Source of the DNA: Terriglobia bacterium
GTDB lineage: Bacteria; Acidobacteriota; Terriglobia; 2-12-FULL-54-10
Direction: 5' to 3'
DNA length: 64,000 nucleotides
NCBI GenBank assembly: GCA_965198025.1
Contig: OZ240237.1
Span: 1,689,093 to 1,753,092, forward strand
How positions within the stretch are numbered: the stretch's first letter is position 1; each line of letters begins with the position of its first letter. This document shows, piece by piece, positions 5,950 to 63,632 of the stretch. The translations under genes were made by a program, and so were the position numbers. A model generated the notes under the pieces. The model did no database searches. It worked only from the letters and a program-made list of their open reading frames with translations, and was not told the origin of the DNA.

Positions 5950-5976
5950 AAAAACGCCGTTTCCGGCGTTTTTCGG
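5950..5976. terminator. bidirectional intrinsic terminator hairpin (A-tract, acgccg-tttc-cggcgt stem-loop, T-tract) immediately after the recG stop
   Basis: aaaaacgccgtttccggcgttttt begins right after the recG TAG; a perfect 6-bp GC-rich stem flanked by A and T runs. Confidence 0.6.
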
Positions 5977-6296
5977 TTCCTGCGGTAGATTCGGTTCTTG
6001 CGGTTCCTTCCGTTCCTTCGGAATACCAAATTCACTATAAAAACACTAAAAAAAGGGGCGTTTCGGGCCTTGCGGACGGTGCCTGGGTGGGGCCGGCGGC
6101 AAAGGGAACCAGCCCGGCACGCTGTGGCATAAAAATCACCCCCGGGACTTGGATAGCGGACCCGCGATTCGGGACTCGAAGAACAGACCCACGGCACAAC
6201 AAGCGTGCCGTGGCTACAGGACTCGAAGAATCAGTGCAGGCCGGAGGCCTGGCACTACTTGCGGGCTATACAGCAACGCTGAAAATGGTCTAGAAC
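5950..6296 (+). repeat. composite dispersed intergenic element, copy A: terminator hairpin + ggttcc-rich direct repeats + A/T-rich core + GC-rich tail ending gggctatacagcaacgctgaaaatgg
   Basis: About 190 nt are nearly identical to the reverse complement of 63420-63630 and the end motifs also match; a partial copy of the ggttc(c/t)ttcgg repeats occurs at 30470-30545. Confidence 0.6.
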
Positions 6297-30445: not shown

Positions 30446-30544
30446 ATGACACCTCCTCGGAAAATTCGGACCCTTGGGGACTCTCGGTAATTTCGGTATT
30501 TGCGGTTCTTTCGGTTCCTTCGTTTGCGCAAAATCACCGCAAAA

Positions 30545-32008: not shown

Positions 32009-32712
32009 AGACGCACCTCCACGCCAGAAAGCTGCTGCGGTTCGGCTGGACGGCGCATGCGGCACTCATACGAGAGCTTGCCGAAGCCGGGGACTTCCAG
32101 CTCACAGGCAAAGTAATCCGTGAAAGCAAATTTCCCGGACTGCAACGGAAGGGTTCCCATCAACAGGACTGTTCCCGCAAGGCCGGACGACAAATGCAAG
32201 CTTGTCAGGAGGTTCTGTGGGGCTAGCAACTGGCCGAGCTTACCGCATTGATAGAGCTCGCGGTCCGGTCCGGGCGCGGCCCAACTGCGCATCGTAATCT
32301 CGTCCCATACAGCGGCTATGTCATTGTACCGCCATACGTTCTTGCTCAGCGGCTTGGGCAGCTCCTTGGAACGAGCAATCGAGCGGCGCTCCTGTTCGCG
32401 ATCCGTAAAGTCCACGATCACTGACACCAGCGCGTCGTCCAGGCTGTCGCCGCGGAACAGAAGTGCCGGCTCGACTTCGCCCGAGATGGGGGCAACCGGA
32501 AACTGCAGATCCGTCTCTGTGGTGACCCACTCGGAAGCGAGGGGAAACAATGCCGGGACGCAGTCGGGAGGAGCAATGCCCTGCCGCTCCAGTTCCGCGA
32601 TGTGGGCGCGCATCTGCTCCCTATCGCGTCCGGTGTATCCGGCCACCAGAATCCGCCGGACGGAGAACTCGACCGGTGAATCATCCAGTTCGAGGATCAG
32701 CTGTTTTGCCAC
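32005..32712 (-). CDS. hypothetical protein, translationally coupled to the HpaB-like gene
   Basis: 235 aa with no recognisable catalytic motif; its stop overlaps the downstream start; possibly a conserved DUF that pairs with HpaB-like enzymes. Confidence 0.5.
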   Translation of the reverse strand: MAKQLILELDDSPVEFSVRRILVAGYTGRDREQMRAHIAELERQGIAPPDCVPALFPLASEWVTTETDLQFPVAPISGEVEPALLFRGDSLDDALVSVIVDFTDREQERRSIARSKELPKPLSKNVWRYNDIAAVWDEITMRSWAAPGPDRELYQCGKLGQLLAPQNLLTSLHLSSGLAGTVLLMGTLPLQSGKFAFTDYFACELEVPGFGKLSYECRMRRPAEPQQLSGVEVRL

Positions 32713-32789
32713 TGGGAAAGGCTACACCGAATCGGTAAAACTCCGCAACGCAGACGCAACGGCATTCTACTACGGCGGCTCAGGGGAGG

Positions 32790-33015
32790 CAGGAATGCCT
32801 GCCCCTACTTTAGGACAGGCGAAGAGCAGATCCCTCGTCACTGCGTTCCTCGGGATGACACGGCAAAGGAGAGTGGATAGGGAGATGGAACACAGGCCCT
32901 GGCGGGCTGTGCTCGAAGGGGACAGGCCAGAGGCCTGTCGCTACTTAGGACAGGCAAGAATGTTGGTCGCTGCCTGGTCGACAGGCCGGAGGCCTGTCGC
33001 TACTTGGCAGGCAGG
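32790..33015 (+). repeat. cluster of REP/MITE-like palindromic repeats (ggcaggaatgcctgcc hairpins; gacaggcc-nga-ggcctgtc-gctactt hairpins; a ~60-nt unit shared with 35737-35795)
   Basis: ggcaggaatgcctgcccctactt occurs at both ends of the region; gacaggccagaggcctgtcgctactt and gacaggccggaggcctgtcgctactt occur inside; gatgacacggcaaaggagagtggat.gggagatgga.cacaggccctggcgggctgtgctc is duplicated at 35737. Confidence 0.6.
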
Positions 33016-33034
33016 AATGCCTGCCCCCACTTGA

Positions 33035-34513
33035 CTACTCCCAGCCGTACTCCGGCCAGCGGCGGTCGACAAGTTCTTCATCTTCCGGAGCGGGTTGGAC
33101 GGTGGGGGGGAAACGCCCGCCCCATTCGGGCTTGGGATCGTACATCCAAGTGCGGGTGGCGTCGATCAAAACGCGGTTCCAGATGCCGGAGCCGAGCTTG
33201 CCCACGTCGCGTTCCTCCAGGGGCGAGGAAGGGTCGGCCGGGGAGCCGAACGAGCCGGGGAACACGACAAGATCGTCCTTGCCGGCGTTGACTCGGTACG
33301 CAATAGCCCAGTCGAGGGCTTCATAGTTGCTGATGTCAATGTCATCGTCGGTGACGATGACGTGCTTGTACCGCCAGCTGGCAGCGCCTGAGCCCCACAG
33401 AGCGGCGGCCACCTGCTTGGCATGTCCCTGGTAGCGTTTATTGATGGCAACACAAATATTGGTGCCGTTGGTCACCGGATGAACATGCACATTGGCGATG
33501 CCGGGAATGCCCTGCTGTTCGAGGATGTTCCACGCGATGGCCGCCCGCTGGATGGACGACATCATGCTATTTTCGGTGTAAGACCCGGGGAGGGTACCCT
33601 CCTGGGTGCCGCGCAGAATGGGATTGTTACGGTACGTGATGCACTCGACCCGGATGACCGGACGCGGCGTAGGAACGTCACCGGTGTGGCCGGTGTATTC
33701 GCCGAACGGACCTTCCGGCTCAAAGGTTTTGGGGTCCGGATCAATTACACCCTCGATGACAATTTCGGCGGCGGCGGGGACCAACAGATCACTGGTTTCG
33801 CAGCGCACTACGGAAAGCGGCTCGCCGCGGTAGCCGCCCATCACGTCGTATTCGCAGACGCCCGCCGGAACCGGGCTGCCGCTCAGGAAATCCATGATGG
33901 GATCGTAGCCGATTACGGCGGCAACGGGCATCGGCTGCTTTCTCTGGCGGTACTTGGTGAAGGTCTGGCCGCCGTGCTGGCTGGCGACAATCAGAACCGG
34001 GATGGTGCTGCGGCGTCCGATCATGCCGCGGTAGGTGCCGATGTTCTGGACGCCGGTGTCGGGGTCGCGCGTGACGATACCCGCGAAGGTAAGCAGGTAG
34101 CGGCCGCCGTCGCGGAAGTGCCATTTGGGCGCCGGGAACTGAGCAAGGTCCACCGCCTCCCCGCGCACGATGTTTTCCTTGACCGGACCCGTTTTCACTT
34201 CGGCTGGCGGGATCGCCTCGCGATTCTTTCCGCGGACGTACTGCACCAGATCGCGCGTAGGCACGTCCGGCGGCAGGCCCAGAACCATGGCCAGCCGGGA
34301 CCGCTTGTGCAGCAGGGCCGCAGCGAGCCTCCGGCAGGCAGTGTTGCGATGGTCCTGGATGTTCTCAAAGAGCAGCGCCGGGCCTTTGGAGGTGAACGAG
34401 CGCCGGGCAATCGCGCCAATTTCGCGGTCCCAGTTCACGACTGCGTTGATGCGCTTCAATTCCCCGGCCGCTTCAAAGCGGTCGAGCCAAGTTCTCAGAT
34501 CAGCGAATCCCAT
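33035..34513 (-). CDS. UbiD-family (prenylated-FMN dependent) aromatic acid decarboxylase
   Basis: 492 aa; UbiD N-terminal block MGFADLRTWLDRFEAAGELKRI...; conserved family regions along its length; no ubiX adjacent. Confidence 0.9.
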   Translation of the reverse strand: MGFADLRTWLDRFEAAGELKRINAVVNWDREIGAIARRSFTSKGPALLFENIQDHRNTACRRLAAALLHKRSRLAMVLGLPPDVPTRDLVQYVRGKNREAIPPAEVKTGPVKENIVRGEAVDLAQFPAPKWHFRDGGRYLLTFAGIVTRDPDTGVQNIGTYRGMIGRRSTIPVLIVASQHGGQTFTKYRQRKQPMPVAAVIGYDPIMDFLSGSPVPAGVCEYDVMGGYRGEPLSVVRCETSDLLVPAAAEIVIEGVIDPDPKTFEPEGPFGEYTGHTGDVPTPRPVIRVECITYRNNPILRGTQEGTLPGSYTENSMMSSIQRAAIAWNILEQQGIPGIANVHVHPVTNGTNICVAINKRYQGHAKQVAAALWGSGAASWRYKHVIVTDDDIDISNYEALDWAIAYRVNAGKDDLVVFPGSFGSPADPSSPLEERDVGKLGSGIWNRVLIDATRTWMYDPKPEWGGRFPPTVQPAPEDEELVDRRWPEYGWE

Positions 34514-34699
34514 CAGGTACTCCCGTGCCGTGCGAAACTCCGATTATAGACAAGAACGGACACGGAGACACGGTGATACTGAAATTCGGTAGTGTCTTAA
34601 TTTGGAGGGGAGGGCGATGGCTACTGAAAATCCGCCATGTTGACAATCTAATTGGAAGAACCGGATACTAACGGTACGGTGGGAAAGAGGGGGGGCGAG

Positions 34700-34978
34700 A
34701 TGTCACTGGCTGATCCCAGGGAAATCGCTAGAATTGCTGAGGAAATTTACAGGCAGAAATATAAAGAGCATTTCGAGAAAGCTCACTCTGGCAAGTTCGT
34801 TGTAATTGACATCCGAAGCAAAGAAGCTCATATAGGAGATTTCGCCGAGGAAGCGTTCGAGATAGCCAGAAAGAAAGCCCCCCATGGCGTATTCCACCTA
34901 ATTCGCATTGGCGCTCCAGGCGCATTCAGGGTGGGCTATGCCGGACAACAAGAAGACATCTGGGATTGGACACTTTGA
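34700..34978 (+). CDS. small hypothetical protein (~92 aa) of the kind found paired with retropepsin-like proteases (DUF5678-like; tentative)
   Basis: Strong RBS GAGGGGGGG before ATG 34700; protein MSLADPREIARIAEEIYRQKYKEHFEKAHSGKFVVIDIRSKEAHIGDF...; its 3' end overlaps the next ORF. Confidence 0.45.
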   Translation: MSLADPREIARIAEEIYRQKYKEHFEKAHSGKFVVIDIRSKEAHIGDFAEEAFEIARKKAPHGVFHLIRIGAPGAFRVGYAGQQEDIWDWTL

Positions 34979-35360
34979 CCAGCAGGGTAATGCTTGTTTG
35001 AAACTCCATATATGCGGGGTAAGGCATGATCCGCCAGGTCCAGAGTACGAAGCGATAATCGACACGGGATTCACTGGATTTATTCAACTCCCGTTGGCAG
35101 AAGCGTTGTCGCTTTCTCTTCCTTTGGAGGGAACCAACTCGGTGACATTGGCTGATGGAAAAAGCTTGGTCATGCTCACCGCGCTGGCTTGGGTGACTCT
35201 GATGGAAAGAACAGAAGCCGGAGTGGTTTTGTTGTCGATGTCCTCCAATGACATTCTTGTTGGAATGGATTTCTTGAGGCGATTTGAGAGATCATTGGTG
35301 GTTTCCAGACAATTAGGGGTTGTCCTGGTAGAAGAAAACGCGTGGCAGAAAAAGCCTTAA
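34938..35360 (+). CDS. retropepsin-like (clan AA) aspartic protease domain protein; start uncertain (34908 or 34938)
   Basis: Active-site motif IIDTGFTGFIQLP and a downstream LVGMDFLRRF flap/dimer region typical of bacterial retropepsin-like proteins. Confidence 0.65.
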   Translation: MPDNKKTSGIGHFDQQGNACLKLHICGVRHDPPGPEYEAIIDTGFTGFIQLPLAEALSLSLPLEGTNSVTLADGKSLVMLTALAWVTLMERTEAGVVLLSMSSNDILVGMDFLRRFERSLVVSRQLGVVLVEENAWQKKP

Positions 35361-35611
35361 TGCCCTGGAACCAGCCGGGACACCTCCCACACCTGCCTTA
35401 GCTGTCAAACGATTTTCCCATGAGGGCCTCTAGCGCCCTTCCAATCCCCTCGACGATACTCTTGTCCTCATCCTTCCAAGGATACCCGCCACGGGAAGAA
35501 ATCGATAGAGTGCTTAGCGGGATTCGCAGATGCCGGAACCTGCAGAACCCATCATGGAATCGCTCGACGATTTGGGCCTGCGGCCCTAAAGCCAAATCAG
35601 GACACTACCGG

Positions 35612-35830
35612 TTGGTGTCTTAATTTCAAAAGAGAAGAGCAGATCCCTCGTCGCCCCTCACCAACGGCTCGGCGAAACGACATCAATATGTCCGAAACGA
35701 CATCAATATGTCGTTTCGTGTCCTCGGGATGACACGGCAAAGGAGAGTGGATCGGGAGATGGAGCACAGGCCCTGGCGGGCTGTGCTCTATGGAGACAGG
35801 TCGGAGGCCTGTCGCTACTTTGCGGCTGCG
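35612..35830 (+). repeat. MITE/structured-element copy related to 32805-32950, plus a local direct repeat and perfect palindrome (gaaacgacatcaatatgtc x2)
   Basis: Shares gagcagatccctcgtc, gatgacacggcaaaggagagtggatcgggagatggagcacaggccctggcgggctgtgctc and gacaggtcggaggcctgtcgctactt with the 32.8 kb cluster. Confidence 0.55.
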
Positions 35831-35972
35831 CTACACCAAACCCTGAAAATGGTCTAGAATTCAGGCTGAGGAATTATCGAAGGCAACTGACAATACGAGA
35901 TACGCTATCGAAGGGACTTGCCATGTCGGGCCTCTGTAGCTACTATAGGGCTACATATTGGGAGGCGTCCAG

Positions 35973-36230
35973 ATGAGTTCCGATACGGTCGTTCGCGCTC
36001 GGATCGATAGCGACACTAAAGCACGGGCTACGGAAGCGCTTCAAGCCATGGGCCTGTCGGTATCCGATGCCATCCGTCTGCTGTTGCTGCGAGTGGCGAA
36101 TGAGAAACGGCTGCCATTCGCCGTCCGGGTGCCGAATGTCGCTACGGTCAAGGCAATGGAGGAACTGGGCGAGGGCAAGGGCAAACGCTTCGGCAACTCC
36201 GAGGAACTGTTCCGGGATCTCGGCGTCTGA
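35973..36230 (+). CDS. dinJ: type II antitoxin, DinJ/RelB family
   Basis: MSSDTVVRARIDSDTKARATEALQAMGLSVSDAIRLLLLRVANEKRLPF matches the RHH DinJ antitoxin fold; 2 nt upstream of the yafQ-like gene. Confidence 0.8.
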   Translation: MSSDTVVRARIDSDTKARATEALQAMGLSVSDAIRLLLLRVANEKRLPFAVRVPNVATVKAMEELGEGKGKRFGNSEELFRDLGV

Positions 36231-36232
36231 CA

Positions 36233-36499
36233 ATGCTGACCCCGGTTCGATCCACGCAGTTCAAACGCGACGTAAGAAGAGCCCAGAAGCGCGGCAAAGA
36301 TCTGATCAAGCTGCGGGTGTTGCTGGCGTCGTTGATCCAGCAGGAGCCGTTATCCGCCCGCTATCTCGATCATCCACTCAGGGGATTTGGGAAGGGCTAT
36401 CGGGAGGCCCATCTCGAGCCGAACTGGCTTTTGATTTACCGCACCGAAGGAGATGAATTGCATCTGGTCCGTACCGGCTGCCCATTCCGATCTCTTTAA
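36233..36499 (+). CDS. yafQ: type II toxin YafQ (RelE/ParE superfamily mRNA interferase)
   Basis: FKRDVRRAQKRGKDLIKLRVLLASLIQQEPLSARYLDHPLRGFGKGYREAHLEPNWLLIYR...LVRTGCPFRS is closely similar to YafQ proteins. Confidence 0.85.
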   Translation: MLTPVRSTQFKRDVRRAQKRGKDLIKLRVLLASLIQQEPLSARYLDHPLRGFGKGYREAHLEPNWLLIYRTEGDELHLVRTGCPFRSL

Positions 36500-36801
36500 G
36501 GAGTAAATCAGGAAGAGAGCTCTATTTATTTCGGCCTTATCTTTGAGAGCTTGCGACAGGCGCTACGACAGGAAGAGCACAGGCCAGTACGACAGGCCGG
36601 AGGTCTGTCGCTACCTGGGACCAGCGGGATGCTGGCGCTACGCTCTTCGGGATGACATGCTTTTGGTGGTGTCCTAATTTTTGCAAAATCAAGACACCGC
36701 CAAAATGGAAGATGCGGTGAAACAACCCTGTCGTTATAATAGAATAGTTACCAGACCGCCTTGGCGCTGCATTACGAAGCGACTTCCGGGAGGGCGAACC
36801 G

Positions 36802-38262
36802 ATGACACGAAGACAAGTTGGGATGGATTCCAAGGAAATTTTTTCCGCAGCCTTGGCCGGGATCATTGTGCTGAGCGCCGCCGTATTGTGGATGCGCTCC
36901 GTCCCGCTGCGCGAGTTACAAGCCAGCGCGGAGCGGGCAGGCCGGCAGCCGACGGGCACTGCGCAACTGGTCGCCGTGCAGACGATCCCGGGATGGGCGG
37001 AGGGCGAGATGTGCGAGTGGGTTCCGGCGAGCGCGGGATCGAACTTGCTGTCGTTGCTGCCGGAACCGCAGTCACAGGACGTGCCCACACGGAGCGGACC
37101 GGCACCGACACCAACCCCCGAGGAATTCGCAGAAGTCAACGCGCGTTCCCCGTTGCGCATGGTCAAGGACCACTATCCCTCCTACAGTTCGGTGGCGGTC
37201 GATTTGAAGAACAACGAAGTGATCATGACCGACGAGAGCACCTTCTCGATCCTGACCTATGACCGCATGACGAACACGCCGGCGAGCGCTGCGTTCAGCG
37301 AGCCGAAGCGGCGCATCGGCGGGCACCAGACCTGGATCGAGTATCAATGCGGCGTCTACGTGGATCAGGCCTCGGGGGACATCTATGCGGTAAACAACGA
37401 CACCGTGGACCGTCTGGTAGTCTTCTCTCGGGAGGCGCGGGGGGACGTGCCACCCGATCGCATCCTGCATACGCCGCACACGACCTACGGGATTGCGGTG
37501 GACGAGCCGCACCAGGAACTCTTTATGACGGTGCAGGAGGCGGCCGCGGTCAGCGTGTTTCGGAAGTTCGCCGCGGAGCACGAAGAACCGATCCGCCTGC
37601 TGCAGGGAGAGCGAACGCTGCTGGCGGACCCGCACGGGATTGCGGTGGACTCAACACGCGACCTGCTGTTCGTATCCAATTTCGGTTCCGTCTCCAGGAA
37701 AGACCCGACCCAGATCCGAGAAGACGCCACCGGATACTACGAGGGGACGGACAAGGCCAACTGGCCGCTGTCGCGGAACGCCGCCATCCCGGGGAGCGGC
37801 AAGTTCCTGCCTGCTTCGATTACCGTCTACCCGCGCGACGCCGAGGGTGACGTGGCCCCGATGCGCAAGATCGAAGGCTCCCGAACACAGTTGAACTGGC
37901 CGACGGCGCTGGTGGTGGATCCGGAGCGGGGAGACCTGTTCGTGGCCAACGATACCGGAGACTCCATCCTTGTGTTTGACGTCATGGCAAGCGGCAATGT
38001 GGCTCCCAAGCGCGTCATCAAAGGCCCACAGAGCATGATCAAGAGTCCCACGGGCGTCTTCTACGACTGGGAGCACGATGAGCTCTGGGTGGCGAATTTC
38101 GGGAATCACACGGCCACCGTCTATCCTGCCACGGCGTCGGGCGACGTGGCGCCTCTGCGCGTGGTTCGCAGCGCTCCGCGTAACACAGGCACGCCCAATA
38201 TCGGCAATGCCTATGCTCCGGCGTATGACTCGCGGCGTGATCAGATCATGGTGCCCAACTGA
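36802..38262 (+). CDS. membrane-anchored YVTN-like beta-propeller repeat protein, N-terminal part; ends at an in-frame TGA in the middle of a blade (probably one gene with 38263-39069)
   Basis: GGGAGGG RBS; N-terminal TM helix; repeated ~48-aa blades of the form GDVAP.R.I.G..T.L..P.G...D....EL.VAN......VF; the ORF stops at TGA 38260-38262 right after a ...MVPN turn. Confidence 0.7.
   Translation: MTRRQVGMDSKEIFSAALAGIIVLSAAVLWMRSVPLRELQASAERAGRQPTGTAQLVAVQTIPGWAEGEMCEWVPASAGSNLLSLLPEPQSQDVPTRSGPAPTPTPEEFAEVNARSPLRMVKDHYPSYSSVAVDLKNNEVIMTDESTFSILTYDRMTNTPASAAFSEPKRRIGGHQTWIEYQCGVYVDQASGDIYAVNNDTVDRLVVFSREARGDVPPDRILHTPHTTYGIAVDEPHQELFMTVQEAAAVSVFRKFAAEHEEPIRLLQGERTLLADPHGIAVDSTRDLLFVSNFGSVSRKDPTQIREDATGYYEGTDKANWPLSRNAAIPGSGKFLPASITVYPRDAEGDVAPMRKIEGSRTQLNWPTALVVDPERGDLFVANDTGDSILVFDVMASGNVAPKRVIKGPQSMIKSPTGVFYDWEHDELWVANFGNHTATVYPATASGDVAPLRVVRSAPRNTGTPNIGNAYAPAYDSRRDQIMVPN
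38260..38262 (+). other. in-frame UGA inside a beta-propeller blade: candidate selenocysteine codon or programmed readthrough site
   Basis: TGA is followed directly by GTG in the same frame; the identical arrangement (aac tga gtg ... cac ccg cag att gc) is seen in the paralog at 59111-59113. Confidence 0.4.
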
Positions 38263-39069
38263 GTGTCCCACCCGCAGATTGCCATCTTCGCCAGGCTGGC
38301 GGATGGAAATGCAGACCCGGTTCGAGCCATTGCGGGCCAGAAATCACTCCTCGCCCGTTCGACGCACGGCATCGCGTACGACCACATCCGGGACCTGATT
38401 CTGGTGCCGAATTTCTACGCGCAGGCGATTCAGTTTTTCCCGGGAGACGCGAATGGCGAAGTGGCCCCGGAACGGATCATTCAGGGTCCTCTGACCCAGT
38501 TGAACAATCCGGACAAGCTGATGCTCGACGCCGTAAACAACGAAATCCTGATCCCGATGCGGGACCGCCTGCTGGTGTTTGACGGCAGCGCCGAGGGGAA
38601 CGTGGCTCCCAAGCGCATCCTGGGTCCGCACCCGGACTTGGGGGCACAGGTGGTGGCCGCCGACCCAGTGCATGATCTGCTGGTGTTGGCGGGACGCGGG
38701 GGCGGCTACGGCGGGCGGTTCCAGATTTTCGACCGTACCGCGTCGGGCAACGACGAACCCAAGTGGGTGATCGCCGGTCCGAACACCGAACTGCAACGGT
38801 TCATGGGACCGATCGAGGTGCAACCCACACGCGGTTTGATCGTCGCCGGGATTCGGACCAATGCGGAATTGGGCGGCCCGGATAACTTCGTCGGGGTGTG
38901 GGACATATTCGCGCGCGGAGACGCCCGGCCGATTTACCGCATTGGAGGCCCTAACGTGCTCCTCGAACAAGTGCGCGGTATCACCTTGAATCCCAAACAC
39001 AAGGAGCTGATCGTTTCCGACAAGCGCATCAACGGAGTGATGACCTACTACTTCCCGGAGATTTTCTAG
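38263..39069 (+). CDS. beta-propeller repeat protein, C-terminal part; same frame as 36802-38262 and continuing the interrupted blade (VSHPQIAIFA...)
   Basis: Begins at GTG immediately after the TGA with no RBS; five further blades of the same repeat type; ends ...YYFPEIF like its paralog. Confidence 0.7.
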   Translation: MSHPQIAIFARLADGNADPVRAIAGQKSLLARSTHGIAYDHIRDLILVPNFYAQAIQFFPGDANGEVAPERIIQGPLTQLNNPDKLMLDAVNNEILIPMRDRLLVFDGSAEGNVAPKRILGPHPDLGAQVVAADPVHDLLVLAGRGGGYGGRFQIFDRTASGNDEPKWVIAGPNTELQRFMGPIEVQPTRGLIVAGIRTNAELGGPDNFVGVWDIFARGDARPIYRIGGPNVLLEQVRGITLNPKHKELIVSDKRINGVMTYYFPEIF

Positions 39070-43089: not shown

Positions 43090-43530
43090 ACGGACGCCGG
43101 CGCGGGTGAGGGAACGCGGAGCGATGCGCAAGAGTTCTTTGCAGGGAAGTCTCCAAGTCGCTACGCTAGCGTGGTGCGCGTGCTGCAAAGCATTCCACGG
43201 GATCGGGGTAGGCCGAAGCGGCTGTTCTGTGACAACGGATCGGAGTTCTCCAGTCAAGTGCTGGACCTGTGGGCCTATCAGAACGGGGTGAAGATCGATT
43301 TTTCTAGGCCCGGCAAACCGACCGACAACGGGCACATCGAATCGTTCAATGGGACGTCCCGGGAAGAATGCCTGAACACCCATTGGTTCACAACACTGGG
43401 AGAAGCCAGGCAGATCATCGAAGCTTGGCGGAGGGAGTACAATGAGAGTCGACCTCACCGGGCCCTGGGGGAGCAGATCGCAGCTAGCTGCGATCTGAAA
43501 GGCCTGCAAAACCCGCAAGACTCACCCTGA
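43090..43530 (+). pseudogene. IS3-family transposase remnant (C-terminal part of a DDE/rve integrase core only)
   Basis: Translation ...YASVVRVLQSIPRDRGRPKRLFCDNGSEFSS...FSRPGKPTDNGHIESFNGTSREECLN...ESRPHRALG matches the rve-core second half of IS3/IS407-like OrfB; no N-terminal half, OrfA or inverted repeats were seen. Confidence 0.7.
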
Positions 43531-45592: not shown

Positions 45593-45832
45593 AGAAGTAC
45601 CTCCTGGGTTCTATTACCGATCCTGAAGGCCACATTGCGGGGCAGGCGGGTATCCTCAGCCTTGTGGACGACACCCATGCTGCCTGTGTCGAGATGGCCC
45701 AAAACTTCATATTGGTTCAGCCACGTGCCTGGAGAAAGAGCCACAGCGTACCCCCGCCGGTGCAATCCTGTGGGCTGCTATGAATCGGTGCGCACCTAGC
45801 TTATCGGAAGGCCACGGTGCGGGGCAAGCGGT

Positions 45833-54464: not shown

Positions 54465-54997
54465 CCAAATCTCCTCCCGGTTCCTCGCGGCACTAGTCTG
54501 GCCTGTGACCCAGGACATGTTTGCTGAATTGCTGGATCCGGAATTTCCAGCAAGGCCTTCCGGCTGCCCCTAATGATACACCCATCAGCCTGCGGTGGAG
54601 CACATTTTGATGCCTGGAAATTGGTATGGAAGCGCGGCGACTATATAGCCAAGAATCAGTACCACCAAGCGGTTTGGGAGGTGACTCCCAGCACCAGAAT
54701 GGTTTCTCTACCCTCTGAAGAGTGTTTCTGGAGACTCAGTCGTAGATCCTTGCCCTGCGGTGGAGGCTTTCGATAAGCTAGGTCTGAACTAAGCAGACTT
54801 CAGGTTCCACCGGCGGGGGCGTAAGACTGTGGCTCTTTCTCCAAGCACGTGGCTGAACCACCATTCCCTAAATCTCTCCCATCGATTCGGAAGGGATAGG
54901 CGGAAGTGCGATGTGCCTGCGACACGCGGCGAAGCAAGAGTAATTCAGGCAGGAATTGCTTCTAATTCACTATCCAAGACTGTGAGCGGAGAAACCT

Positions 54998-56089: not shown

Positions 56090-56445
56090 TCGCCATAACC
56101 AAGTCCTCTGCGAATGTTGCGAAACCCCTTGCCCTGCGGCATGGCCTGCCGATAAGCTAGAACGTGAAATGATTCATGGCAGCCTGCAGGTCGTCCGCTG
56201 GCGGGAGGCAAGTCTGTGGCTTTTTCTCCAGGTACGTGGCTGAACGATTGCGAACTCCTCGCTCCCATCGGCTCCGGGGGCAGGGGCGAAGTGATGCTGC
56301 GCGACCGGATCAAGCGTGGACCGGTTCCCATGGAGGAAGCCCTCCACATCGCCGGTTCCGACGGAGGCCCGATGATCCGCCGTTTGTGAAGAGAAACTCA
56401 GAACTGTATCCCAAGCTGTACGATCGCGGAGGGAGGAATCTTGGA

Positions 56446-57192: not shown

Positions 57193-57691
57193 TGTTCTGT
57201 CCTGGAAGTACGGTGATTCAGTTTCGGAGCGCAACGGCGCTGGATTGGGGGGAGAGACGACGAGCCAATGCTCATTCATTGCGAGGAGGAGCGACGCCCA
57301 AGACGGCGCCGTTCCGCCCGAACTCGTAGAGCCGATGGACGTTGCTCACGCTACGGAAACGCGGCCCCGGAACCCGTTGCGATTTGGGAGGCGTGGACGC
57401 TGTCGGTTCCTCAACAGCCACGTCCATCGGAATGAATGAGCGTATTTCCGGGACAGGACACTAGCTCTCATCGTTTTCCCTCGGCGCAGGCAGGCAAAGC
57501 GCTCCGCAGCAGATCCATCGCGTTCAGAATTTGGTTTGGTGAGCTAAAGCAGCCTGTGCCAGCGCCTGAATCCGAGACGCGGCCCGAACCGATATTCAAG
57601 ATTGATGTCCTTCAGGAAGCGGTTGCTCTTACGAGCAATTCTAAGAGCGTATTGGGGAGACATGAGAATAGGAGATAGGAGGAGCGAGGTG

Positions 57692-59113
57692 ATTCGACAT
57701 TCCCGATCGAAGCGTAGAAAAATCCGTGAGATTGTAATTCTTGGTTCCCTGACCGCAGTTGCCGGCTGGCTTGTCTGGAGCGGAAGCAACGGAATCGATC
57801 TGGAGCGGGAAAGGACGGCTCATCCTCGCCTGGTTTCGATTCAGCCGCTGCCGGAGCTTGGTTCGGAAATGGCTGGCGCGATGTGCGAGTACATGCCCGC
57901 CAGCGCGACTCCCTCGCTGCTTCTGGCCCTGCAGGAATCGCAGGCGGCGCGGGAGCCATACCCAGGTGCTGCTGAGCAGGAAGCCGCCTCGAAGCGGCTC
58001 CCGATCCGGACCATGCGAGACCCCTACTCCTCTTTCAGCGCGGTGGCAGTGGACCCCACCAACGACGAAGTGGTCATGACCGACGAGAATCTGTTCAGCA
58101 TTCTCAGCTACAATCGCACAGACAACACGCCGCCTGCCGCTCGCATGACCGAGCCCAAGCGCATCATCCGCGGTGAGTCCACCAACATCGAGTTTCAATG
58201 CTCGCTCTATGTGGACCCGGTCAATGGCGACGTCTACGCCGCCAACAATGATACCCTTGGCAAGCTGGTCGTTTTCTCGCGGCAGGCCCGCGGCGACGTG
58301 GCCCCCGATCGTTCTATCAACACTCCCCACACCACTTTTGGCATTGCCGCGGATGAAAAGACCCAGGAGTTGATGCTGACGATCCAGGATGATGCTGCCG
58401 TGGTCACCTACGCCAAGACAGCCCAGGACGACGATCCGCCGATCCGGCTGCTGCAAGGCGAGAAGACCCTGCTCGCCGATCCGCATGGCATTACGATTGA
58501 CAAGAACAAAGACCTGCTCTACGTGTCGAACTGGGGCACGGTCAATATTCACCGTGCACCGCCGGATGGGGCCAAGGCCGGAACCCTCGGACGGGGCAAC
58601 GGGCATCCCAATTGGCCCATCGGCCGGAATTACACCATCCCGGGCTCCGGTGTGGCGAACCCGCCCTCCATCACGGTATATCCGCGAGATTCGCGCGGAG
58701 ATGTCGCTCCGCTGCGCGCCATCCAGGGTCCCAGGACGCAGTTGAACTGGCCCACGTCTCTCTCGGTAAACCCTGCCAACGGTGAGCTTTTTGTTGCTAA
58801 TGACACCGGGCACTCCGTCCTGGTCTTCGGCCCGGATGCCGACGGCGACGTCGCGCCAATCCGAGTCCTCAAGGGCCCCAGAACCTTGATCCAGAACCCC
58901 ACAAGTGTATTCTTCGACGAGAAAAACAACGAGCTATGGGTTGCCAATTTCGGCAACCACACGGCCACGGTCTATCGGCCGGACTCCTCTGGCGACACGC
59001 CGCCGCTTCGCGTGATCCGCAGTGCTCCGTTCGAAGCTCCTACTCCTATGCTCGGCAATCCGCACGTGGTCACCTACGACAGCCGCCGTGAAGAGATCAT
59101 GGTCGCCAACTGA
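57692..59113 (+). CDS. membrane-anchored YVTN-like beta-propeller repeat protein, paralog of 36802-38262, N-terminal part; ends at an in-frame TGA (track ORF starts at 57602; AGGAGG precedes GTG 57692)
   Basis: TM helix IVILGSLTAVAGWLVW; the same blade repeats and the conserved MCE(Y/W)xPASA segment; stops at TGA 59111-59113 after ...IMVAN. Confidence 0.7.
   Translation: MRHSRSKRRKIREIVILGSLTAVAGWLVWSGSNGIDLERERTAHPRLVSIQPLPELGSEMAGAMCEYMPASATPSLLLALQESQAAREPYPGAAEQEAASKRLPIRTMRDPYSSFSAVAVDPTNDEVVMTDENLFSILSYNRTDNTPPAARMTEPKRIIRGESTNIEFQCSLYVDPVNGDVYAANNDTLGKLVVFSRQARGDVAPDRSINTPHTTFGIAADEKTQELMLTIQDDAAVVTYAKTAQDDDPPIRLLQGEKTLLADPHGITIDKNKDLLYVSNWGTVNIHRAPPDGAKAGTLGRGNGHPNWPIGRNYTIPGSGVANPPSITVYPRDSRGDVAPLRAIQGPRTQLNWPTSLSVNPANGELFVANDTGHSVLVFGPDADGDVAPIRVLKGPRTLIQNPTSVFFDEKNNELWVANFGNHTATVYRPDSSGDTPPLRVIRSAPFEAPTPMLGNPHVVTYDSRREEIMVAN
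59111..59113 (+). other. in-frame UGA inside a propeller blade (second occurrence): candidate selenocysteine / readthrough codon
   Basis: aac tga gtg gct cac ccg cag att gcg; the downstream ORF continues in frame with no RBS and encodes the rest of the blade (VAHPQIAAF...). Confidence 0.4.
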
Positions 59114-59980
59114 GTGGCTCACCCGCAGATTGCGGCCTTCCCCAGGTTGGCGGAAGAAAACGCGAGAGCCACTCGGGCCATTGCCGGACAGCACACGCTC
59201 ATAACGCGCACCATTCACGACATGGCCTACGATCCGGTCCGTGATGAAATCGTCGTTCCCCAGTTCTACATGCAGGGCATACTCACCTTCCGGGGCGCTG
59301 CCAACGGGGATGAAGCGCCCATCCGCGTTATCAGCGGTCCTCGCACAGAGATTGCAAACCCGACTCGGATTGCCCTCGATCCCATCAATAACGAAATCTA
59401 TATCCCGATGAATCACCGCCTGCTGGTCTTCGATCGCTTTGCCGAGGGTAACGTAGCTCCCATTCGAACCATAGAAGGGCCGGATACGGAAATGTCCGCG
59501 GGCGTTGTCCAGGTGGACCCGGTGAACAATTTGGTCGTTGTTGGTGGATACAGCGTGGCCGGGGGTCGCGGAGATGCGGCGCAGATCGCCAGAGGACAGG
59601 TCCTCAGCGGAGACCGCAGCGGCCGGGGCGGCCAAATCCTCATCTTCGACCGGACTGCTGCCGGCAACGCCAGACCGTTGCGCATCATCCGCGGCCCCAA
59701 CTCGAAGCTCTCCCGCGTCGGGCTGATGGCCCTCTATCCACCCCGGCAGTTGATCGTCGCCAGCGTCCCGGCGGGCCAGACAACATCACCCGAAAATTTT
59801 GTCGGCGTATGGAGCGAGCTGGACGATGGCGATGTCCCGCCCCGCTGGTTGCTCGGCGGTCCGAACTCTGTTCTTCGTCAAGCCCGTGGCATCACGCTCG
59901 ACCCTGCGAACAAGAACGTGATCGTTTCGGACAAGTACGTCAATGCCGTGATGACATTTCACTTTCCGGAGATATTTTAG
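59114..59980 (+). CDS. beta-propeller repeat protein, C-terminal part; same frame as the upstream ORF; paralog of 38263-39069
   Basis: Homologous along its length to 38263-39069, including the C-terminus ...TFHFPEIF. Confidence 0.7.
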   Translation: MAHPQIAAFPRLAEENARATRAIAGQHTLITRTIHDMAYDPVRDEIVVPQFYMQGILTFRGAANGDEAPIRVISGPRTEIANPTRIALDPINNEIYIPMNHRLLVFDRFAEGNVAPIRTIEGPDTEMSAGVVQVDPVNNLVVVGGYSVAGGRGDAAQIARGQVLSGDRSGRGGQILIFDRTAAGNARPLRIIRGPNSKLSRVGLMALYPPRQLIVASVPAGQTTSPENFVGVWSELDDGDVPPRWLLGGPNSVLRQARGITLDPANKNVIVSDKYVNAVMTFHFPEIF

Positions 59981-62838: not shown

Positions 62839-63288
62839 ATGATGAACAGAAGTCCTGCAGTGCTCATCCTGGCTCTATTGTTCGTTAGCGGAGCCTCCGC
62901 TCAGAAGCTGGAGTTTGCGAATCCGGAAGGGATATCTACTCCGGAGCGATACTCACACGTCGTGAAGGCGGGAAACATCATTTTTGTTTCCGGGCAGGTC
63001 GGCCGCGATTCCAACGGACAGATCGTGGGAGAGGGTATGCGGGAGCAATTCGACCAGACCTTGAAGAACGTGATCACGGCAATCCAATCCCAGGGAGCCG
63101 ATGTTGGCCATATCGCCAAGATTACGACCTACGTGACCGACATGGACGAGTATCAGAGCCCGGAAGTCCGGGCCATTCGCACCCGGCACTTTGGAAATCA
63201 CAAACCTGCGAGCACATCCGTCGAAGTTGTGGGGTTGGCGAATCCGGCCTACAAAGTGGAGGTCGAAGCCATCGCCATTCTGCCTTAG
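62839..63288 (+). CDS. RidA/YjgF/L-PSP family protein with signal peptide
   Basis: VKAGNIIFVSGQVGRD...ITTYVTDMDEY...VEVEAIA is the RidA family pattern; N-terminal signal MMNRSPAVLILALLFVSGASA. Confidence 0.85.
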   Translation: MMNRSPAVLILALLFVSGASAQKLEFANPEGISTPERYSHVVKAGNIIFVSGQVGRDSNGQIVGEGMREQFDQTLKNVITAIQSQGADVGHIAKITTYVTDMDEYQSPEVRAIRTRHFGNHKPASTSVEVVGLANPAYKVEVEAIAILP

Positions 63289-63289
63289 A

Positions 63290-63632
63290 TCATTTTCAGC
63301 ATTGCTGTATAGCCCCCAAGTAACGACAGGCCTCAAGTAGGGACAGGCCTCTGGCCTGTCCCCTTCGAGCACAGCCGACAGGCCGCCAGGTCTGTACTCG
63401 CAAGCCCAGGTGTTGCGGGTCCGCAATCCAAGTCCCGGAGGTGGTTTTTAGGCCACAGCGTGCCGGACTGGTTCCCTTTGCCGCCGGCCCCACCCATGCA
63501 TCCCCCGCAAGGCCCGAAAACACCCCTTTTTTAGTGTTTTTATAGTGAATTTGGTATTCCGAAGGAACGGAAGGAACCGCAAGAACCGAATCTGCCGCAG
63601 GAACCGAAAAACGCCGGAAACGGCGTTTTTTC
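63290..63632 (-). repeat. composite dispersed intergenic element, copy B (inverted relative to 5950-6296), including the terminator hairpin aaaaacgccggaaacggcgttttt
   Basis: The reverse complement is nearly identical to 5950-6140 and shares the end motif gggctatacagcaa.gctgaaaatg; its middle contains gacaggccagaggcctgtcc-ctactt hairpins of the REP-like family. Confidence 0.6.

Follow-up and report, generated by a model that had tools for sequence, protein, structure and literature searches.

Two copies of a composite hairpin-repeat block in intergenic DNA of a Terriglobia bacterium

The described repeats that come closest to the locus analysed here are the REP sequences, i.e., imperfect palindromes with a conserved 5' GTAG (PMC3333891), and the hairpins recognised by Ssn nucleases. 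REPs are taken to be extragenic and present in more than 100 copies per genome. They are arranged in E. coli as BIMEs, in which REPs and inverted REPs alternate and are joined by conserved linkers, and their inverted doublets are known as REPINs (PMC3116915). Among the targets of the Ssn nucleases, the Neisseria transformation sequence (NTS), CGTCATTCCCGCGMAVGCGGGAATCYRG, contains dRS3 and is bound and cut as single-stranded DNA by the 94-aa GIY-YIG nuclease SsnA; its frame is CGTCAT-palindrome-ATC, i.e., CGTCAT-TCCCGCG-MAV-GCGGGA-ATC (PMC11893778). “Ssn-related motifs” (SRM) flank ssn genes in many phyla and have been published in the degenerate form HGTCWYN(0-2)YYVSBRHN(0-5)WNVSBRGN(0-2)RNCYNB, and in the Neisserial intergenic mosaic elements (NIMEs) short oriented dRS3/NTS hairpins are interleaved with longer, less conserved repeat units (PMC11893778). 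For a hairpin to count as an SRM, its copies should flank a small single-domain GIY-YIG (cd10448) gene in the same genome. Here we describe an intergenic mosaic that has features of both kinds of repeat, one component of which seems to be a variant, not described before, of a known kind of hairpin repeat.

Modular composition of the two copies

We analysed a stretch of 64,000 nt from a Terriglobia bacterium (hereafter the window). Its genes, among them CarboxypepD_reg TonB-type receptors and PSD/PSCyt proteins, would fit Acidobacteriota or a similar soil phylum. A repeat search of the window found a direct repeat of 100 nt (32847–32946 and 35721–35820) with 93% identity, preceded in both places by the exact 19-mer GAAGAGCAGATCCCTCGTC (32821–32839 and 35634–35652), and a 26-mer of the shared block occurred twice in the window versus zero expected over 100 shuffles. 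The duplicated, hairpin-rich element of the preliminary description is therefore real, with the shared parts in the same order and orientation as it had stated and with the boundaries corrected to those of Table 1. The difference in length between the copies is due to an insert in the first hairpin of copy 2, and what had been described as shared ends with a variable interior is better explained by a single hairpin whose apical insert varies. The direct repeat within this insert is 20 nt long (CGAAACGACATCAATATGTC twice, 35673–35712) and not 19, and the palindrome that had been called perfect has perfect 11-nt arms around a centre of 4 nt, CAAT, that is not palindromic. As copy 1 is flanked by genes for DUF2848 and a UbiD-family decarboxylase and copy 2 by an aspartyl-protease-like ORF and a RelB/YafQ pair, the duplication was not a segmental one that carried genes along, which is the explanation that the preliminary description had set against its own reading.

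A sensitive self-comparison of the window indicated a modular unit, the modules of which are also found apart from one another. On the minus strand, copy 1 consists of a GTAG hairpin (module 3), CCTTC, a second palindrome (module 2), a 27-nt linker, a TGTCAT hairpin (module 1) and a tail, TGCTCTTC. The full composite is known only from its two copies. A 20-mer of the shared block gave nothing in 185,579 representative genomes beyond one chance match (Mycolicibacterium, in a coding-upstream region), and a two-anchor pattern retrieved from the JGI metagenomes two chance matches in coding DNA and two partial relatives that keep only GATCCCTCG…CTCGGGATGACA of the shared block. A literature search with sequence strings returned unrelated primers only.

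Table 1. Positions of the composite units, their modules and related hairpins in the window.
Feature	Position	Strand	Remarks
Composite unit, copy 1	32821..32946	-	126 nt; 100 nt at 93% identity and the exact 19-mer in common with copy 2; the same in the sister genome but for a 30-nt deletion
Composite unit, copy 2	35634..35820	-	187 nt; modules of copy 1 plus a 61-nt insert within the TGTCAT hairpin
Module 1, copy 1	32829..32860	-	Hairpin T-GTCAT-CCC-GA-G(GAACGCAGTGA)C-GA-GGG-ATC; frame of an Ssn-related motif, tandem-G.A variant
Module 1, copy 2	35642..35734	-	Foot as in copy 1, GTCAT-CCC-GA … GA-GGG-ATC; long insert at the apex
Apical insert of copy 2	35673..35718		20-nt tandem repeat (x2); by folding, the second repeat plus GTTTCG makes a hairpin with an 11-bp stem and a 4-nt loop
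27-nt linker, CGGCAAAGGAGAGTGGATAGGGAGATG	32861..32887 (copy 1); 35735-35761 (copy 2)		Confined to both copies and their sister-genome orthologues
Module 2, palindrome GA(A/G)CACAGGCC-CTGGC-GGGCTGTGCTC	32888..32914 (copy 1); 35762-35788 (copy 2)		The “8-bp hairpin” of the preliminary description
Module 3, GTAG-type REP hairpin AAGTAG-CGACAGGCC-TCT-GGCCTGTC	32920..32946 (copy 1); 35794-35820 (copy 2)	-	5 copies versus 0 expected
Further GTAG hairpin of the module 3 family	32979..33003	-	59 nt away from module 3 of copy 1; not in the sister genome
GTAG hairpin of a second stem type, GTAG-GGGCAGGCATTCCTGCC	32783..32808	-	Found by repeat search
GTGG variant of the GTAG hairpin	33006-33032		
Third, rearranged cluster	36540..36660	-	TGTCATCCCGA half-motif (36647-36657), GTAG-CCAGC hairpin, GTAG-GACAGACC hairpin (36590-36614), GCTCTTC tail
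Modules 3 and 2, opposite orientation	63335..63399	+	Embedded in another repeat, of 345 nt
Two more GTAG hairpins, GTAG-CCACGGCAC… and GTAG-TGCCAGGCC…	6189..6258 (6189, 6237)	-	In the partner copy of the 345-nt repeat

Module 1 has a 5-bp foot, above which come two G.A pairs, one G-C pair and a variable apical part; the apical insert of copy 2 had no match in viral contigs. As DNA, the core hairpin has an ordinary predicted stability (-3.5 kcal/mol, z ~0) that gives no clue to the strand, and the whole unit folds somewhat better than its shuffles (z ~ -2.1 to -2.7), to an equal degree on both strands. Intermediates in the stem (G.T versus A.C) are few and conflict as to the strand. Only two features favour the TGTCAT/GTAG strand as the putative strand of action: the tails, which are oriented, and the tandem G.A pairs (C.T on the opposite strand).

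Modules 2 and 3 are built on a common core, ACAGGCC/GGCCTGT. The 8-bp-stem hairpin of the preliminary description is present in both copies, although copy 1 has a single mismatch in it (GAACACAG). In fact it is part of a palindrome that extends to as much as 11 bp and reads GAGCACAGCCC-GCCAG-GGCCTGTGTTC on the minus strand of copy 1. The sequence at 63335–63376 is 97.6% identical over 42 nt to that at 32905–32946, and in an intergenic region of a relative that is unrelated to this locus (contig L154, 1700–1880) the doublet of modules 2 and 3 is found twice in tandem. This recurrence at both places indicates that the “8-bp hairpin” belongs to a repeated doublet, of which it makes up one of the two hairpins. 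The hairpin GACAGG..CTGTCGCTAC had been correctly noticed as recurrent (five in the window, none expected). Copies of the GTAG hairpin, GTAG-CGACAGGCC…GGCCTGTCG, and variants of it are located at 32921, 32979, 35795, 36590, 63337, 6237, 6189 and 32783, always in intergenic DNA. Within one cluster of the window they all have the same orientation. In viral contigs the GTAG hairpin pattern had no matches, and after loosening it had one that was uninformative.

These GTAG hairpins resemble REPs in that modules 2 and 3 and the others are imperfect palindromes of 20–30 nt, within the ~20–40 nt of REPs, with the conserved GTAG 5' of the foot. Like REPs and BIMEs they are extragenic, multi-copy (five copies of one stem type in 64 kb against none expected) and clustered with short linkers in mosaic combinations, and the number of hairpins varies between close strains. 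However, their stem sequences are unrelated to enterobacterial or pseudomonad REPs, and within the window the clusters have the mosaic, linker-joined character of BIMEs with all GTAG hairpins running the same way, instead of the alternation of REPs and inverted REPs with conserved linkers found in E. coli. The locus also resembles NIMEs, being an intergenic mosaic of oriented hairpin repeats beside strain-variable genes, but it is found in an uncultured organism with a GC content of 59%, its sequences are different and two unrelated classes of hairpin are mixed in it.

Rearrangement of the hairpin clusters in related genomes

Through the neighbouring proteins we reached two closely related genomes and two more distant relatives. 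The flanks of the sister genome (L008) are ~99% identical to the window, whereas its hairpin cluster is rearranged. Copy 2 is present there with its insert and few substitutions; at one site, GAAGG versus TATGG, the sister copy 2 agrees with copy 1 and the copy 2 of the window differs. At copy 1 of the sister genome the TGTCAT hairpin and the linker are identical and the GTAG cluster is rearranged, with one 59-nt unit fewer, another segment present and a 30-nt deletion between GGCCTGT microhomologies by which half of the second palindrome was lost.

In L153 and L154, with a UbiD protein at least 90% identical, the spacer between UbiD and DUF2848 is only 88 nt long and has no hairpins, versus 322 nt in the window, and thus represents an empty site at the position of copy 1. 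In a further relative (L157) the same spacer is occupied by a Phd/PIN pair, and the whole segment corresponding to 34514–36801 of the window (cassette, copy 2, RelB/YafQ and the third cluster) is absent. Together, the empty site, this absence and the rearrangement in the sister genome point to lineage-specific gains in an insertion-prone region with a fast turnover.

The TGTCAT hairpin in environmental DNA and its relation to Ssn-related motifs

Module 1 belongs to a large family of hairpins in environmental DNA. Its core motif, GATCCCTCG-N5-35-CTCGGGATGACA, was found 99 times in 79 viral-contig stretches, versus ~1 expected, with insert lengths that cluster at 5–6, 14–16 and 28–30 nt. The frame TGTCAT-stem…stem-ATC occurs ~240 times in environmental viral contigs, and a new search of the fetched DNA in which only GTCAT…GA…GA…ATC was fixed gave 191–198 distinct copies. 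Together with the further module copies in the window, the presence of this module in many unrelated environmental contigs bears out the multi-copy, hairpin-rich intergenic family of the preliminary description. In plasmid and cultured-phage collections we found only weak partial matches for the G.A-type hairpin.

The stem of module 1 is maintained by compensatory changes. Of 82 copies that had not been selected by their stem, 67 were perfectly complementary at all three free pairs of the stem, compared to a mean of 16 and a maximum of 28 in 2000 permutations. The compensated stems were TCC/GGA (24 copies), CCT/AGG (16), TCT/AGA (14) and TTC/GAA (9), with CTT/AAG, GCT/AGC and GTC/GAC as further types. 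Both G.A pairs were retained in 199 of 242 copies when they were not imposed, and the pair that follows them was Watson-Crick in 175 of 188. Apical inserts of 14–35 nt are common in the family and form hairpins of their own. The tail ATC-TGC-pyrimidine, also not imposed, is found in the window copies and in 35 of the 191 family copies (18% versus ~2% expected), while the closing ATC is present in every copy by construction.

The family copies are commoner outside ORFs than inside, and their orientation with respect to the neighbouring genes is random (25, 22, 20 and 16 cases across the four configurations). Their flanks have a T at position -1 in 88% of the copies and at +1 in 68% and are otherwise random, with no T-run and no conserved promoter or terminator. 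The copies are found as singletons, as inverted doublets and as tandem arrays. Adjacent copies that face each other (TGTCAT-hairpin … hairpin-ATGACA) amount to 40 pairs, all less than 150 nt apart, and this inverted doublet, the commonest arrangement, is what likens the family to REPINs, the difference being that in the window both copies stand singly and are joined to other modules. Tandem arrays of alternating doublets, reminiscent of BIME-2 and seen only in other contigs, were found in two of them (L171 and L172), where two stem types and two linkers alternate. Orientation, flanks, doublets and arrays all indicate a dispersed DNA hairpin repeat of the REP/REPIN/BIME kind and not a terminator or a gene-linked RNA.

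The architecture of module 1 is that of the SRM and NTS motifs. GTCAT stands directly 5' of a hairpin-forming inverted repeat, AT pairs close the hairpin and a conserved C follows the palindrome; in the window version, TGTCAT-CCCGAG…CGAGGG-ATC, the identity of the loop is free and extensions are allowed, as in SRMs, and the copies are likewise oriented, dispersed and often clustered. Inverted pairs of the G.A type are frequent, with the two members oriented to each other as in the pair around ssn genes. Both window copies carry TGTCAT, in agreement with the oriented HGTCWY tail of SRMs, and the hairpin-forming inverted repeat of 20–50 nt with its following C is also found, with an ATYYY/RRRAT foot that covaries and a modest predicted stability. 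However, SRMs have a perfect stem of ~8 bp, unlike the 5-bp foot plus two conserved G.A pairs of the hairpin described here. Because of these tandem G.A pairs the published degenerate SRM matches none of the 191 G.A-type copies and neither of the window copies, whereas the NTS control is matched.

We also looked for the association with nuclease genes. The link between SRMs and ssn genes was reproduced on independent loci, where 95-aa PF01541 proteins are bracketed within tens of nucleotides: CGTCAT hairpins with an 8-bp stem and ATC bracket PF01541 genes in metagenome contigs and in ~25 of 41 viral-contig loci, and some of these hairpins, with long apical inserts and CCC-led stems, are close in style to the window hairpin. 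A second group of small GIY-YIG proteins, of the Bacteroidota type, had no flanking GTCAT hairpins. For the G.A-type hairpin, neither the window nor 842 kb of hairpin-bearing loci contained a GIY-YIG ORF, 250 kb of Ssn-containing loci had no such hairpin, and in viral contigs we found no GIY-YIG gene bracketed by a G.A-type pair at 350–442 nt spacing. The G.A-type pairs that do have a gene-sized spacing were tandem arrays and one small HTH_23 protein without a catalytic domain, the position of which is probably coincidental. Module 1 is thus only a candidate member of the SRM, and it is possible, though doubtful, that its partner is a nuclease of the Ssn family.

Neither in the window nor in its relatives did we find a gene for an enzyme acting on either class of hairpin; the DNA of this genome that we examined contained no RAYT gene, and no RAYT link was found for the G.A-type hairpin. 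Screens of all fetched DNA for Y1 transposases and GIY-YIG proteins with probe sequences, a signature regular expression and a small HMM had a single outcome, a RAYT remnant in an unrelated contig (L039). This degenerate Y1_Tnp (26.6 bits in Pfam, cutoff 23, after one stop had been bridged manually) has inverted doublets of a related hairpin, GTAG-CAGGC…GCCTG, on either side and is adjoined by a TGTCAT doublet and a GTAG hairpin.

Origin of the composite block and its significance

The explanation that we consider probable is that both copies are a composite block of three short kinds of hairpin repeat, located in intergenic clusters of the REP/BIME or NIME type. The TGTCAT and GTAG modules would be DNA-level elements that fold when the DNA is single-stranded, and the folded hairpins would be recognised in trans by structure- and sequence-specific ssDNA enzymes. 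Copies of the hairpins would accumulate beside and within one another, allowing the clusters to grow, shrink and recombine quickly, and modules 2 and 3 would travel together as a doublet. The duplication of the block as a whole was probably an event of recombination or gene conversion between hairpin clusters, since the 27-nt linker is found nowhere else. The enzyme for the GTAG hairpins is likely a RAYT-type Y1 transposase, and that for the TGTCAT hairpin may be an Ssn-like GIY-YIG ssDNA nuclease or some other enzyme. What was observed directly is the modular anatomy, the membership of families, the compensatory stems, the gene-independent orientation, the doublets and arrays, the empty site and the rapid rearrangement.

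The preliminary description had offered two identities for the element, a MITE or a small structured RNA gene. A MITE, i.e., a non-autonomous derivative of a DDE transposon with terminal inverted repeats (TIRs) that is cut and pasted as a unit and generates target-site duplications (TSDs), would be short, multi-copy and intergenic and would show presence/absence polymorphism, as do Correia elements and as does this unit with its empty orthologous site. Copy 1 is also flanked by a direct repeat, AGGACAGGC, and the inverted doublets of module 1 run from TGTCAT to ATGACA, like the TG…CA tips of transposons. However, the ends of the unit have no TIR (12 of 30 positions identical, which is the chance level) and there is no consistent TSD: copy 2 has none, and the apparent one of copy 1 belongs to a recurring hairpin-linker junction. 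The modules are found independently and in differing orders, and the only trace of a transposase nearby is an unrelated rve_3 fragment ~7.5 kb away, all of which makes a MITE decidedly improbable. An RNA gene or a cis-regulatory RNA present in several copies (a 3'-UTR stabiliser, processing site or attenuator) would agree with the several stable hairpins, with the better folding of the whole unit compared to shuffles, with the covariation of the stem and with the location of copy 1 in the co-directional gene string UbiD-DUF2848-HpaB, where the TGTCAT/GTAG strand is the sense strand. Against it, Rfam had no match over the window at the gathering threshold and none at E<=5 over 32600–36900, copy 2 is antisense to both its neighbours, the orientation of the family with respect to genes is random, its flanks have neither a conserved promoter nor a conserved terminator, and there is no energy asymmetry between the strands. 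Besides, the sister genome has deleted half of one hairpin, and one relative has the two genes side by side with no element in the spacer. We therefore regard an RNA as improbable too.

A small protein starting at the ATG at 32885 and 35759 (MEHRPWRAVL…) could be proposed because a frame is open through both copies and the 30-nt deletion of the sister genome is in frame. Yet it has no homologue among 5.8 billion proteins and no Shine-Dalgarno at a usable distance, the copies differ by two synonymous changes and two non-synonymous codons and have unrelated C-termini, and the frame consists of palindromic repeats, so that coding is extremely improbable. As for purely local recombination, in which gene conversion brought part of one cluster into another at a distance of 2.8 kb and the modules have neither mobility nor function, it would agree with the existence of only two full copies, 2.8 kb apart in a strain-variable region, with the linker being restricted to them and with the agreement between copy 2 of the sister genome and copy 1 at the GAAGG/TATGG site, a pattern like that of gene conversion. 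It leaves unexplained the dispersed families behind every module and the covariation of the stem, and as a complete explanation it is unlikely, although local recombination likely accounts for the duplication of the block, as the last step in the formation of a mosaic of REP/BIME- or NIME-type hairpin repeats.

The composite repeat is ordinary in kind, and its novelty is apparently confined to one component, the G.A-stem hairpin. A more speculative proposal, which we put forward tentatively, is that hairpins of the form TGTCAT-YYY-GA-G…C-GA-RRR-ATC are a distinct, widespread and undescribed branch of the Ssn-motif/REP repeats, abundant among uncultured bacteria of the soil type and their phages and all but missing from sequenced plasmids and cultured phages, that forms REPIN-like doublets and BIME-like arrays and might have an ssDNA-specific enzyme of its own, either a divergent Ssn clade adapted to the G.A-containing stem or a different protein. 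For annotation, the finding accounts for a class of intergenic sequence that breaks assemblies and yields spurious ORFs in metagenomes, and the locus itself indicates a strain-variable hotspot for the gain and loss of toxin-antitoxin cassettes. If no enzyme exists, what we have found is an ordinary REP-type mosaic. The description of site-specific ssDNA nucleases (Ssn) dates only from 2025, and the regular expression by which the motifs that they target were defined misses the G.A variant. If a cognate enzyme does exist, the G.A-stem hairpin would widen the known range of specificity of enzymes that have been proposed as ssDNA tools, and the hairpin-plus-enzyme system would reach well beyond the symbiont-rich lineages emphasised so far.

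A strain-variable island next to the composite repeat

A strain-variable island lies next to copy 2 of the composite hairpin-repeat unit (coordinates of this and the other features are in the table). Its cassette codes for a 92-aa ORF and an aspartyl-protease-like ORF, and in the sister genome its place is taken by unrelated DNA with ORFs of 182 and 91 aa. The more distant relative L157 lacks the entire island, RelB/YafQ included, and its space from UbiD to DUF2848 holds a Phd/PIN pair instead. Between the two close genomes UbiD was 96.5% identical, whereas the DNA to the right of position 35574 was 99.2% identical, a step that suggests a recombination boundary.

The motif GTGTCYTAATTT was found five times in the window (0.17 expected), always within one 2-kb stretch. 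In the sister genome, the variable cassette has a perfect 32-nt palindrome, AAATTAGGACACTACCGGTAGTGTCCTAATTT, at its right-hand edge. Judging from these sequences, the motif might serve as an operator, or else as a site of recombination.

Location of the features described
Feature	Position	Remarks
Strain-variable island	window 34514-36801; cassette 34552-35573	adjoins copy 2; from comparison with sister genome and L157
GTGTCYTAATTT sites	34592-34603, 35594-35626, 36669-36697	one half-site and two palindromes
Paralogous two-gene modules	window 36802-39069 and 57602-59980	NHL-repeat protein and 268/288-aa partner
345-nt intergenic element	5950-6292 (+) and 63286-63630 (-)	inverted copies, 57 kb apart
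CGGTTC/CGGAAT-type repeats	window 5975-6030, 30446-30544; L154 1880-1940, 7817-7859; L157 8713-8777	
Small intergenic repeat …CTGTGGCTCTTTCTCCAGGCACGTGGCTGAAC…	54808-54860 (+), 56210-56245 (+), 45713-45762 (-)	three copies
rve_3 (IS3-type integrase core) fragment	window 43258-43530	90 aa
Degenerate RAYT-like gene	L039 1190-1800	N-terminally truncated, in-frame stop
G.A-type hairpin pair around HTH_23 protein	L173 7708-8158	112 aa, Cys-rich; sole case

Other repeated sequences

Both copies of the 345-nt element occupy the gap downstream of a gene's stop codon, with identities of 93.5% over 216 nt and 88% over 49 nt. A bidirectional terminator-like hairpin, AAAAACGCCGTTTCCGGCGTTTTT, opens the element; its variable interior is made of GTAG hairpins (REP-type palindromes), and its right end, CTGAAAATGRTCTAG, recurs after copy 2 of the composite unit, at 35845-35859. 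Short CGGTTC/CGGAAT-type repeats were seen downstream of recG and HpaB genes in several relatives; in L154, another distant relative, they form a TCGGAAT-like tandem array. The two paralogous gene modules share 71-84% DNA identity. The rve_3 fragment, which contains a perfect 24-nt palindrome (43474-43497), is also kept in the sister genome.

Hairpins and nearby genes on short and phage-like contigs

Small Ssn-like GIY-YIG nuclease genes (proteins P0001-P0120) were very often found on contigs of less than 2 kb, which is what one would see if hairpin repeats in their flanks break short-read assemblies. The HTH_23 protein encoded between G.A-type hairpins (the type forming the first module of the composite unit) in L173 has no catalytic domain, and its position there is probably a coincidence. 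In eight related phage-like contigs (L016, L037, L040, L042, L045, L053, L073 and L087) these hairpins lie between homologous genes, in a single orientation and every 0.7-2 kb, which suggests that they play a role in these phages or are tolerated by them. On another contig, L039, the RAYT-like gene directly follows a phage terminase gene and is flanked by inverted GTAG/GTGG doublets, an arrangement from which it appears that phage-like contigs can carry REP/RAYT systems.
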